From assembly GCA_951406725.2 (NCBI GenBank), contig OX597818.1:7068001-7132000 (forward strand): a stretch of DNA of 64,000 nucleotides, in the 5' to 3' direction. The notes beneath the pieces are model-generated. The model did not search any database, had not been told where the DNA came from, and saw nothing but the letters and a program-made list of their open reading frames with translations. Positions within the stretch are counted from its first letter, which is position 1. Each line of letters begins with the position of its first letter. Positions 5,973 through 31,319 of this stretch are shown in pieces. Position numbers and translations under genes: made by a program. Origin of the DNA: Octopus vulgaris. Taxonomy: Eukaryota.

Positions 5973-7211
5973 TTCGAAGACTCACACACATGCTCACAAA
6001 CAAATAAACAAGAATAACGCACCTCTGATAACGGACAGTGTCAACGACTATTGAAGAAATTGCAAGACGCATCGAAAGTTTCTAGAAAAAATAAATGAGT
6101 AAATGAGTGGAAATCCGAACCGGTGAGTGTGTTAAGTAATAAGGCACTGGAAGAGAATGACTCTCCCCAGACACAATAATATGCATACATACTTATGCGT
6201 ACATACATACATACATGCATACATACATACATACATATATATGTGTGTGTGTGTGTGTATACATGTCTATCTATCTATCTATCTATCTATCTATCTATCT
6301 ATCTATCTATCTATCTATCTATCTATCTCTCTCTCTCTCTCTCTATATATATATATATATATATATATATATATATTAGAAGAAATGAGGTACTCAGAAA
6401 ATCGGATGGTTTATATTTACAGATATTTATTTGTATATTACATTTTTTATACATCATATAACTTAGATCATGCGCTTTCTCCCATTCTAGTGGGGTTTCA
6501 AATCAAACTAAGTTCCTGTGTGAAAAGTTTTGACCATTTTATAGTGGTATTGAGTTTATAGTGGTGGGGATGAATATAAGACAGTACAAGAGGGTGATGG
6601 ATGAGGAGAAAGTGAGAGAGAGAGAGAGCATGTGTGTATGTGTGTGTGTGTGTTTGTATTTGGAATGAGTGCTAAAGAAAAAGAGGGGAAGGGAGAGGGA
6701 AGAAGAAGAAAATAATTTTTTTGCTCTGCTGGACAGGATGCTTACTCCAAGTGGGGTCTAAGATCTTGGGGAAAAAAGAATTTCAGTTTTGACCATTTCA
6801 TAGTGTTATTGAGTGTGTGGTGGCGGGGAGGTAGACCATAAATTATATTTCTTTTTATCATTGTGAGAGAGAGTGTGTGTGTGTGGGGCGGGGGTTAATG
6901 AGGGATGGTCAAATGTTTTTTTGGGTTTAGAGAAGAATTCCTTTTACGATTGTTTTGTGGAGGTGCGTGTGTGTGTCTGTGTGTGTGTGTGTGTCTGTGT
7001 GTGTGTGTGTGCGCGTGTGGGTGTCTGTGAGTTTGGAGAAGGGAAGAGAGGAGAAAAAAAAAGGAGGAAGGAGAAATAATTGTGTTGATATTTATACCAC
7101 TATATATATATATATATATATATATGTAGGTCCCGGGTTGATTCGGGGTTAACCACAGTAAGTAAGGTACTCAATACATAGCAGAGTAAAATTAATTTAT
7201 TATATAGAAGG

Positions 7212-7262
7212 AGCTTCTACAGGACTAGTACTGTTTCATTCAAGAGAAATCTTCAGGAAGCT
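7212..7262 (-). ncRNA. Type I hammerhead ribozyme, family C
   Basis: Minus strand reads AGCTTC-CTGAAGA-TTTCTCTTGAAT-GAAA-CAG-TACTAGTC-CT-GTA-GAAGCT. Confidence 0.88.
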
Positions 7263-7559
7263 ATTTAACAAGAATTGTATTAGCATTTATACATTTAGGC
7301 AGGTTTAAAGGAGTGGTGGTGGGGGACTTTTTGGGGGTAGGCATAGCGCAAAATATCATACTTGGGGGAGTGGTCAAGGAGTCAGTGGTAAGTTAGATGA
7401 AAGAATAGATAAATAAAAAAATAAAAAAAAAAAAAAAAAAAAAAAAAAAAAAATATATAAATAAAAAAATATATATATAAAAATATATATATATAAATAA
7501 TATAATATATATATAAAAAAGGGGGATAGAGTTATAGGTAAATAAGGAGATTCTCACTT

Positions 7560-28611: not shown

Positions 28612-28626
28612 CAGTAACTGTAACAG

Positions 28627-28677
28627 AGCTTCCTGAAGATTTCTCTTGAATGAAACAGTTCTAGTCCTGTAGAAGCT
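28627..28677 (+). ncRNA. Type I hammerhead ribozyme, family C
   Basis: AGCTTC-CTGAAGA (28633-28639)-TTTCTCTTGAAT-GAAA-CAG-TTCTAGTC-CT-GTA (28669-28671)-GAAGCT. Confidence 0.85.
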
Positions 28678-31319
28678 CCTTCTATATAATAATATTATAT
28701 ATATATATATATATATATATATATATATATATATATATATATATACAAAATGGGACAAGAACGCAAAACATCCAGAAGACGATACAAAAAACACGGACGG
28801 GTCATTCGAAGCTTTTAATTTTCAGTCCAGAACCGGATCATCCTCGCAATTTCGGCTGAATAATTATCTATCTATCTCTATATATATGAGTGTGTGTGTG
28901 TGTGTGTGTGTGTGTGTGTGTGTGTGTGTGTGTGTGTGTGTGTGTGTGTGTGTGTGTGTGTGTGTGTGTGTGTATGCCTTTATATATGTACGCATTCATG
29001 AATGTATGTATGTGTGTATGTATCTTTGTGAATGCATGTGTAACTATGCGTATGCGTATGTGTGTTTTTGAATATCTGATATTGAAATTACAATGTTTAC
29101 TCCTGTAAATATACGGGTTATATAGTTTGCAACATTTTAATCAAATCGTATTCATATTTACAGTAGTTTAAAGAGGGTATGCTTTTTTTCGTTTTGAAAA
29201 CGGGCGAAATAGAAGAAGAATGCAGGAACTATAATTAAACCTCGGTCTTCTCAAGTATTGCCACAGTCATTTCAAAGAGATTCTGATTCTTCTACATATT
29301 CCTAAATTCATTCAGATGTTGGGTCTATTTTAAATGAAGATTAAAATTGTTTAAGTTGCTAACCATGGATTTGAACCGAGAAATGTTATTAAAAGCGTCC
29401 ATGTGCGAGCTAATACAATGATGCCTTGCTCTCTATCTTTGTGATGGTGGAGATCTTCTTATGCATAGTACAGTTACTTTGGAATTAATGTATCCGATTT
29501 CTGGCTGGTTCTTTACCTACCTGAATAAACTTACTTTCAAGTGACTGTATATGTATGAATGAATGAATGAAAGAATGTATGTATGTATGCATGTATGTAT
29601 GTATGTATGTATGTATGTATGTATGTATGTATGTATGTATGTATGTATGTATGTATGTATGTATGTATGTTCACACACATATAAGCATATGTGCTTGCGA
29701 ATATATAATTGTTTGTCTGAGTACATGTGTGTCGGATTGATCCTGTATGCCTTCATATTACTGCATACATTATGCATTCATGTTTGTGCGTATAGGTGTA
29801 TCTGTGCGCATGAGCACACTGTGTGAATGTATGCATATAGTGTGTGCGTGTGTGTGTGTGCATGTGTGCGCGTGTGTGTGTGCGTAACTGAATAGGTTTG
29901 AATATATGATTGTGAATATGTAATACATACACACATACACATATGCTAAGAAACACATACGTACTTGTACACACACACACATATATATATATGTATATAT
30001 GTGTATATGTATGTGTGTGTATCTATCTATCTATCTATCTATATATATCTATCTATCTATCTATCTATCTATATATATATATATATATATATATATATAT
30101 ATATATATATATATTATATACATACATGTATGTATGTATGTATGTATGTATGTATGCATATATATGTTATGTATACAGATATACATACAGATATATATAT
30201 ATATATGTATACAGATATATATATATATATATATATATATATATATATATATATCTATATGTTTGTATGTATATGCGTTAACATATACATACCAAGTTAC
30301 GTACAGTCGTGTATGCATATTTATGAAATACTAGTGTGTATCAATGCGTGTGTGTTGCCATGATCGCATTGATGTTTTCGCATATATATTGTATATTCTC
30401 GTCTGTGTGTGTGCATATGTGTGAGTTCCTGTGAGCAATAAAATGCCCAACAACCAATAGTTGACCAGCAGAGCGGATCAGCTTTGAGTGTGCAGCAGGC
30501 ATAACGGTGTAACCTGGCTACAGAACAGAACAGAACAGAAGAGAGAATTTGGTGAAGAAAAACTGGAAAACTGCTTGTGTTCATAAGAGTACAGATATGG
30601 AACTAATATGATGCTAAAGTAGTAGTAGTAGTAGTAGTAGTAGTAGTAGTAGTAGTAGTAGTAGTAGTAGTGGTAGTAGCAGCAGCAGCGGCGGCGGCGG
30701 GAGCGGTGGTAGTGGTGTTGTTAGTGGTTGTAATGGCCGCAGCTGCATCAGCAGTTGCAGTATTATTATTATTATTATTATTATTATTATTATTAGTAGT
30801 AGTAGTAGTAGTAGTAGTAGTAGTAGTAGTAGTAGTAGTAGTAGTAGTAGTAGTAGTACTTAGGAAGCAACCAAGCACACTAGTTATAGCACTGTACAAA
30901 AGGCTTATAGGCATTTCGTCGGAATGTGCTGAGCTCAAATGCTGCCGAGGACATATTTTGCCTTTCCGTTTCTCGGGGTCGATAAAATAAGTACCAGTTA
31001 AACGCTGGCATCATGATAATCGACTTATTCCTTTCCCCGAAATTGTTGGTCTTGTGCCAAAATTTGGAACTATTTTTATTATTATTATTATTATTATTAT
31101 TATTATTATTATTATTATTATTATTATTATTATTATTATTATTATTATTATTATTATTATTATTATTATTATTATTATTATTATTATTATTATTATTATT
31201 ATTATTATTATTATTCTTGTTATTATCATTATTATTATTATTATTATTATTATTATTATTATCATTATCATTATTATTATTATTATTATTATTGTTGTTG
31301 TTGTTGTTATTACTATTAC

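Follow-up and report, generated by a model that had tools for sequence, protein, structure and literature searches.

The stretch of DNA considered here, hereafter the window, comprises 64,000 nucleotides (nt) of the Octopus vulgaris contig OX597818.1 (G000:C5:7068001-7132000, in a genome of 2.8 Gb and 227 contigs), and within it lie five insertions of Penelope-like elements (PLEs) and of hammerhead-bearing non-coding units. The inserts were located by masked self-BLAST, a list of TA runs and a blind palindrome finder, and all five follow one layout, in which (TA)n is succeeded by a tail, a minus-strand arm, a junction, a plus-strand arm and again (TA)n. We call T1 the outer end of the tail-bearing arm, T2 the outer end (the inner site) of the tail-less arm, and tail the segment from T2 to T1. 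Four families are represented: A (7126-15680 and 28475-28692), B (26109-27057), C (27126-27504) and D (27515-27708), with tails of 71 nt in the large A insert, about 90-94 nt in B, about 30 nt in C, 68 nt in D and 71 nt in the small A insert. A preliminary description of this DNA had already proposed the five-insert layout, and its coordinates agree to a few bases with the self-BLAST and the TA-run table; its range of paired arms (about 40 bp up to about 4.0 kb) was recovered as well. Of the end motif that it gave, the form stood and the allocation changed, as TATATAAT ends the families at 7126/28475 and at 26109, not C, which ends in CATATATAT, nor D, which ends in CAGATA.

The large A insert is preceded by (TA)n at 7101-7125, which adjoins the T1 end, and opens with the 71-nt tail from T2 to T1 (7126-7196, minus strand), delimited by self-BLAST and the palindrome finder. 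Its T1 arm (7197-11654, minus) carries a hammerhead with its core at 7256 and a predicted cut after 7218, a microsatellite-rich 3' untranslated region (UTR), the GIY-YIG, linker and thumb regions and the 3' half of the reverse transcriptase (RT), and it extends 401 nt further 5' than the T2 arm. The Hydra-clade open reading frame (ORF) remnant at 10409-11652 (minus) comprises the RT 3' half, a CxCX5C linker and a GIY-YIG domain without CCHH; it lies in two frames, split at a C-run, and is 99% identical to an uninterrupted ORF elsewhere in the genome (L151). The T2 arm (11655-15680, plus; self-BLAST end 15678) holds the 3' part of the ORF, the 3' UTR and a hammerhead (core 15619, predicted cut after 15657), and its T2 end reads TATATAATAA/AT before the right-hand (TA)n at 15679-15729. 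In the family A 3' UTR an old B-like mini-palindrome was found at 9785-10000, with a mirror copy at 12902-13117 and 77-88% identity to B. Its reduced palindromic form had been recognized in the preliminary description, as a piece nested in the window copy; the form holds, in a diverged, B-like state, and insertion into the window copy does not, given that the piece occurs in 17/17 family A arms spanning the site and is therefore ancestral to family A.

The B insert consists of a T1 arm (26109-26528, minus; unit positions 139-560; hammerhead core 26439) and a longer T2 arm (26528-27057, plus; unit 497-560 followed by 1-470; hammerhead core 26819), and is more than a plain two-arm palindrome, the plus arm being a partial tandem with a second tail piece at 26528-26591. 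The T1 arm of C (27126-27421, minus) derives from the 3' end of a Neptune/Nematis-type PLE, with a hammerhead core at 27250 and, by self-BLAST, a 34-bp direct repeat inside it; the T2 arm (27421-27504, plus) stops at the C end motif given above. In D, the T1 arm (27515-27620, minus) is the 68-nt tail plus about 40 nt, from the 3' end of a second Hydra family, and the T2 arm (27617-27708, plus) starts inside the hammerhead, ends in CAG/ATA and extends 51 nt further 5' than the T1 arm. The small A insert (28475-28692) is a mini-palindrome of a minus arm (28475-28611), a short filler and a plus arm (28619-28692), with hammerhead cores at 28605 (minus) and 28633 (plus), and both arms begin at the 5' edge of stem I. 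From 26061 to 28745 these four insertions of four families are linked via common TA tracts within 2.7 kb, from which each new TA flank seems to act as the next target. Such palindromes are locally enriched in the window when compared with an unselected 400 kb, where 4 to 6 of them (about 1-1.5 per 100 kb) and a similar number of unpaired or unresolved ends were counted. Two further features were noted. A repeat pair (27729-27850 and 28746-28864, 88% identical) starts directly after the (TA)n beside D and the small A insert, and its minus-strand CTGAAGA/CTGAAAA-like text may be another decayed hammerhead end; a family F, at 52433-52522 and at offset 62470-62717 of a block of the same contig (G000:C5), forms another asymmetric palindrome between (TA)n tracts, its tail measuring about 54-59 nt.

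The same architecture recurs across the genome, from which we sampled, among top-scoring matches, 171 insertions of seven families (A, B, B2, C, D, G and H). Repeated matches within one insertion were merged before counting in B, B2, C and D, and one complex A locus (G000:C3:32115216-32123100; L167-L168) was excluded from every count. Resolved palindromes number 109/171 (A 21/30, B 13/18, B2 16/28, C 11/26, D 22/29, G 13/20, H 13/20), and all 109 pair T1 with T2, T1/T1 and T2/T2 combinations being absent (0); two B partner ends, lost at the locus edge or placed 23 nt too early, are only near T2 or less certain. Lone arms of both kinds were also found, some lone T2 arms being flanked by (TA)n at either end. 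When D arms were collected with a query lying upstream of both sites, 14 ended at T1, 12 at T2 and 4 elsewhere (n = 30). Two checks proposed in the preliminary description, on whether copies are mostly single-armed and on whether second-arm ends cluster, were run: most sampled copies are resolved palindromes, with family C as the exception weighed below, and the second-arm ends are fixed at T2, with TA-like microhomology.

(TA)n adjoins 30/30 tail ends of A and 24/30 ends of D, compared with 489/19,175 random positions. Moreover, for a mini-palindrome in the UTR of A itself, 36 uninterrupted copies already hold 17-58 nt of TA, and the interrupted copy holds about 61 nt in total (n = 1), in agreement with the earlier proposal that (TA)n is the pre-existing target; target-site duplications are unreadable within it. 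A few D ends (L100, L101, L119/L231) join (CA)n, (TC)n or (ATC)n, two of them via a short template match, and targeting of (TA)n is therefore not absolute. Regarding the position of the sites on the RNA, tandem copies run on beyond T1 in A, where the sequence continues via ATATC to an ATG 45 nt later, and also in B, B2 and D, no tandem junction having been found for family C. Since this continuation leads into the 5' UTR and the ORF, T1 is internal and not the RNA end, and the earlier suggestion of priming at the RNA 3' tail is not supported. Scored by eye from the junctions, the match to alternating TA measures 4 nt in A, 2 in B, 3 in B2 and 3 in D at T1, and 2 nt in A, 6 in B, 3 in B2, 8 in C and 3 in D at T2. 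Microhomology of at least 2 nt is thus present at 9/9 sites and of at least 3 nt at 7/9, compared with 12-21% (2 nt) and 4-7% (3 nt) of random positions, and the five T2 values (2-8 nt) support the microhomology that had been postulated for the inner end. Each family has its own tail length (30, 68, 71, 90, 94, about 105 or about 150 nt) and its own site sequences.

The relation between the two arms was examined at family-polymorphic non-CpG sites, with shuffled arm pairs (1000 shuffles) as the null. Arms of the same insertion were discordant at 9/371 sites in A (null 0.21), 0/23 in B (0.32), 9/122 in B2 (0.24) and 23/215 in D (0.25), and shuffles as low as observed were 0/1000 in each of these families; in C the comparison had no power (0/16 discordant, with 283/1000 shuffles equally low). 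Furthermore, 22 insertion-private alleles, across 16 insertions, occur in both arms. An origin of the two arms from two random RNAs of the family was rejected on this concordance. The reach of the arms follows no such agreement: the T2 arm extends further 5' than the T1 arm in 23/97 resolved insertions (A 4/21, with nine further A insertions unresolved, B 8/13, B2 2/16, C 2/10, D 6/24, G 1/13), by up to 5.4 kb, A copies exceeding by 2.4, 4.2 and 5.4 kb. Where the arms meet, C and D junctions (n = 34) show microhomology in 23 cases, filler in 10 and a blunt joint in 1. In family G most near-equal arms stop in 2437-2461, a zone that looks like an RNA start or a strong stop. Joints of this kind were also present in Logan contigs from three DNA-like runs, carrying two organism labels and no library type on record: all 15 joints listed (99 more exist) link a minus to a plus arm, of B or D, and 5 of the 15 were shared by two or three runs, in some cases down to the filler. 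Head-to-head junctions are consequently found beyond this assembly as well; none of the Logan contigs listed spans those of the window itself, an outcome that counts neither for nor against them.

The coding capacity of the families supports the identification of the inserts as PLEs, as the preliminary description had stated, with RT/GIY-YIG ORFs in A, D and C. An uninterrupted 713-aa frame of family A (L151) encodes an RT followed by a C-terminal GIY-YIG endonuclease and has 249 homologues, the 120 listed showing 36-53% identity; a Pfam search returned no RT or GIY-YIG match for the family A protein. It presents a CNCHDKTTC linker (CxCX5C), no CCHH, no cysteines between the GIY and YIG equivalents, CDLC and CMH, together with RWR and DKT, which align with RWK/RWR and mostly DKT in 11 homologues. 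Judged by ORF order, motifs, 3' hammerhead and (TA)n target, family A is a Hydra-clade PLE. At 5.2-5.7 kb its unit exceeds the "generally <3 kb" of Hydra because its 3' UTR is rich in microsatellites. The family is young, 40 scored matches to its 205-nt end all being 100% identical, and abundant, with 24,343 first-look candidates for an endonuclease query, a figure not to be read as a copy number. A one-base frame split at a C-run was noted in both arms of the large A insert (11078-11086 and 11826-11834), and by hand count about 107/150 scored endonuclease matches start at the first residue of the query and share the shifted frame, an outcome that the query favours. Common to many genomic copies of young and older subfamilies alike, the split would represent either a slippage hot spot or a homopolymer error.

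The family D ORF has a CSCRNKKLC linker (CxCX5C), CGLC (CxxC), CxH and no CCHH, and about 40% amino acid identity to that of A; from these features D is a second Hydra family, and the window copy its 3' end. Family C differs in its CGRPNCGIC linker (CX4CxxC), with CPGC inside the GIY-YIG core, two downstream histidines and an upstream RT with YLDD, and the CX4CxxC linker with CCHH places it in the Neptune or Nematis type. Two additional families were noted in the window. Family G (1-2826) holds RT and GIY-YIG remnants 30-45% identical to A, as a third Hydra element, in a partial tandem that begins left of the window; its hammerhead core maps to about 2531 and its T2 and T1 ends to about 2677 and 2826, with a tail of about 150 nt. 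Family H (40366-40858) has a hammerhead core at 40467, T2 at 40649 and T1 at 40743; the window copy runs beyond T1 to a different end, and one locus (L345) shows a weak C-like endonuclease match upstream. In addition, a 518-bp element with terminal inverted repeats (40978-41495) lies within a TA run, and we take it to resemble a Tc1/mariner-type miniature element.

Families B and B2 are non-coding. The B unit measures 560 nt, with one type I hammerhead per unit and tandems of up to 4.3 units, and its relative B2, a non-coding tandem of about 595-nt units, behaves like B. Their palindromes bear out the earlier claim that coding and non-coding hammerhead units share one integration signature. 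No A-like ORF was found in or upstream of B units (18 insertions), and no A- or C-like ORF at B2 loci (28 insertions); lacking an ORF, they need a mobilising partner, and they are likely moved in trans by some PLE protein. Both are only retrozyme-like, in that a non-coding tandem unit with a hammerhead fits this class and 560 or about 595 nt exceeds its 150-450 bp. Among the runs listed as holding the B/B2 stretch, none is on record as RNA. Template jumps between cleaved monomers were considered for the B tandems and rejected, as no haplotype switch was seen at the hammerhead cut and units of one insertion mostly carry the same haplotype; these haplotypes leave a circle and a homogeneous concatemer indistinguishable as the template.

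Type I hammerhead motifs number 9 in the window, compared with 0-2 in each of 10 shuffles, and 7/9 fall within A, B and C; the calls rest on a motif script, which missed family G, whose stem II is beyond the script's length limit. The window D copy is truncated inside its hammerhead, and genomic D copies hold it whole. The core of family C at 27250 has U3-A8, a pair able to replace C3-G8 in hammerheads. An Rfam scan of the window gave no hammerhead family among the 150 matches listed of 259, those listed being microRNA models on simple repeats and hairpins. Self-cleavage in these families is predicted from the motifs, and the predicted cuts lie about 20-200 nt upstream of T2 and do not coincide with the T1 and T2 ends. 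Many D arms (L091-L120) were seen to stop within about 30 nt of the stem I 5' edge, several of them at the palindrome TGGCCA.

Taking together the anatomy, the family ORFs, the fixed ends, the T1+T2 pairing, the shared haplotype and the independent arm lengths, we propose, with a probability of about 0.65, that the palindromes are made in (TA)n by several endonuclease-bearing PLE families through two target-primed reverse transcriptions (TPRT), starting at two fixed internal sites on RNA from one source copy. The family's own GIY-YIG domain would nick both strands of (TA)n, and each resulting 3'-OH end would pair over 2-8 nt with an AU motif of the RNA, T1 serving one end and T2, which lies 30-150 nt upstream, the other. 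The two complementary DNAs (cDNAs) would then copy the same RNA stretch 5'-ward, each terminating on its own and in many cases close to the hammerhead or at a fixed boundary, after which their 3' ends would be joined via microhomology or filler and repair completed. The expected product consists of two arms placed head to head as a palindrome, of which a single side carries the T2-T1 tail, and failure of one cDNA would yield a lone T1 or T2 arm. The template would be a tandem or circular RNA, because arms traverse uncleaved hammerheads and can exceed one unit. In this respect, the two priming events on opposite strands that the preliminary description had put forward are supported by the strict T1+T2 pairing, the shared haplotype and the independent arm lengths. 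A more specific form is coupled twin TPRT, in which a protein dimer would nick (TA)n and assign its ends to two fixed AU sites on a single RNA molecule by telomerase-like microhomology, a scheme that would hold for the Hydra and Neptune-type clades and for the non-coding units; we offer it tentatively, as a possibility a little short of even, the dimer being borrowed for a Hydra element by analogy with the Poseidon element PAc discussed below.

Several observations weigh against this proposal. Among the 171 insertions, 62 are single-armed or unresolved within the available DNA, as are most of family C (15/26), and the queries used for A, B2, G and H extend beyond T2, with a bias toward long T1 arms. 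The excluded A locus (G000:C3:32115216-32123100) has an inner T1/T1 arrangement that the twin-priming model leaves unexplained; its halves share a junction, the filler of which resembles host sequence close by, and an inverted duplication covers at least about 500 nt of the host flank. Its origin as the daughter of a parent palindrome elsewhere was considered and rejected, as no parent was found and the duplicated flank is local. Private alleles in one arm only number 125, and D arms are discordant at 11% of non-CpG informative sites, which may reflect age or sometimes two templates; the shared arm haplotype could alternatively stem from gene conversion between the arms at a later time. Stops of the two arms at a distance of no more than 20-25 nt are more frequent than expected, with 6/21 in A against 0.77 (2 of the 6 in low-complexity sequence and less certain), as fold-back also predicts. 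Energy folding gave hammerhead z values of -0.26, +0.89 and -1.13, none significant, the D coordinates having missed the core. Finally, the start site of PAc is not homologous to the cut DNA and shows no strand difference, at variance with the TA microhomology and strict T1+T2 pairing in octopus (available text of PMC11167929).

Among the alternatives, the arms may derive from two RNA molecules, one per protein subunit or particle and usually from the same transcribed source copy; alternatively the molecules would stem from different copies, and gene conversion between the arms would have followed. This would account for the independent arm lengths and for the 7-11% discordance in D and B2, including single D insertions with several discordant sites (up to 7/25). 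We consider it unlikely in view of the near-full concordance of young families despite coexisting haplotypes (young A 6/137 versus 0.31; B 0/24 versus 0.32), and of arms that often stop near the same position.

A fold-back or self-priming route, published as a hypothesis (Arkhipova et al., 2013; PMC3846280, in the part available), would have the T1 cDNA, or an antisense RNA, fold at a short palindrome, be copied back to the target and be captured at T2. It accounts for the shared haplotypes and the private alleles common to both arms, fits the D junctions centred on TGGCCA, and fits both the excess of near-equal arms and the frequently longer T1 arms. A copy cannot exceed its template, and the T2 arm reaches beyond the T1 arm in the 23/97 insertions reported above, the B and D copies of the window among them; fold-back is therefore disfavoured as the sole route. 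Lone T2 arms bounded on each side by (TA)n also speak against it, and as a general explanation it is rather improbable.

The proposal of a single GIY-YIG/RT machinery mobilising all families, made in the preliminary description, draws on their identical geometry and target and on the need of B and B2, without an ORF, for a partner. It is very improbable, as A, D and G have separate Hydra ORFs at 30-45% identity, C has a Neptune/Nematis-type endonuclease with CX4CxxC and CCHH, and tail lengths and site sequences differ by family; these separate ORFs indicate one geometry and several enzymes. Long near-perfect inverted repeats are a known class of artefact, and a fold-back artefact of sequencing or assembly is hardly credible here, given ends fixed at T1 and T2 over seven families, arm substitutions that scale with age, and the Logan joints described above.

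The architecture, the (TA)n target and the clades are already published, and what is gained here are new octopus families and the copy-level rules. Craig et al. (2021; PMC8557442) described PLE copies placed head to head and tailed on one side, as well as hammerheads and Hydra-clade targeting of (TA)n, and the available text tabulates 27 Hydra families, 26 with (TA)n preference, together with hammerheads, and includes Penelope-13_HM with an inverted 5'-truncated copy and Hydra-1_Obim from octopus. The multi-family, microsatellite-targeted form that the preliminary description had believed undescribed is hence on record there. Like the Hydra clade as presented in that text, the octopus Hydra elements combine an RT with a C-terminal GIY-YIG, CxCX5C, no CCHH, CxxC and CxH around conserved E and N, RW(R/K), DKT, a 3' type I hammerhead and (TA)n targets, and the stem III and cut-site forms of A and D match its hammerhead table. 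They differ in tails of 68-150 nt, compared with 30-40, and in that family A is long, very young and abundant. A copy-level test of the relation between the two arms was not found in the part of PMC8557442 available. For PAc, a Poseidon element of Anolis characterized in vitro (Frangieh et al., 2024; PMC11167929) and a biochemical precedent for the route proposed here, the accessible text reports two internal RT start sites that bound a tail, cleavage and extension of both strands, an uncleaved RNA substrate, an AT-rich target and a predicted dimer; a link of the two start sites to inverted arms was not found in it.

Penelope copies of Drosophila virilis and Adineta vaga, as far as the available parts of PMC3846280 and PMC2377424 describe them, likewise show partial tandems, an inverted 5'-truncated copy tailed on a single side, palindromic sequence where the inverted copies meet, and mobilisation in trans by pseudo-long-terminal-repeat (pLTR) sequences; unlike these accounts, which invoke self-priming on an antisense template, the octopus arm-reach counts disfavour that as the only route. 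B and B2 resemble metazoan non-long-terminal-repeat retrozymes, which are non-coding, low-GC tandems with one type I hammerhead and for which PLEs have been proposed as mobilisers (PMC7229834, PMC4209133 and bioRxiv 10.64898/2026.07.22.740005, in the portions available), and a circular RNA template for more-than-unit copies was proposed, in the text accessible, by Cervera and de la Peña. Unlike the retrozymes so described (150-450 nt), B and B2 have 560- and about 595-nt units, short T1+T2 palindromes in (TA)n and a direct PLE integration signature; the term "Inverted" had 0 matches in PMC7229834 (main text) and 1 in the bioRxiv text, where it belongs to the title of a reference. A recent annotation of octopus repeats gives counts of Penelope-like families with recent activity, and its main text mentions neither Hydra nor hammerheads. 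In a literature search that reached few subscription papers, no earlier account of strict T1+T2 pairing, of a haplotype comparison between arms or of retrozyme-like units bearing a PLE integration signature came to light.

Twin priming is familiar from L1, in which two target ends prime one RNA and the cDNAs join by microhomology to give an inversion, the first primer acting at the poly(A) end, the second at a variable site, and the two cDNAs covering different parts of the RNA. The octopus insertions depart from L1 in having two fixed, internal sites and overlapping cDNAs, which yield a palindrome.

The formation of tandem and inverted PLE inserts and their bias toward microsatellites are named as an open question in the available text of PMC8557442, and the octopus copies place three copy-level constraints on any model, namely that T1 pairs with T2, that the arms share their source and that their lengths are independent. 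These rules favour twin priming over self-priming. The genome furthermore offers young and abundant PLE families with uninterrupted ORFs, and PLE palindromes are a large source of inverted repeats in it. If coupled twin TPRT, including that of the non-coding units, is true, these insertions would constitute direct genomic evidence of animal retrozymes travelling by PLE machinery.

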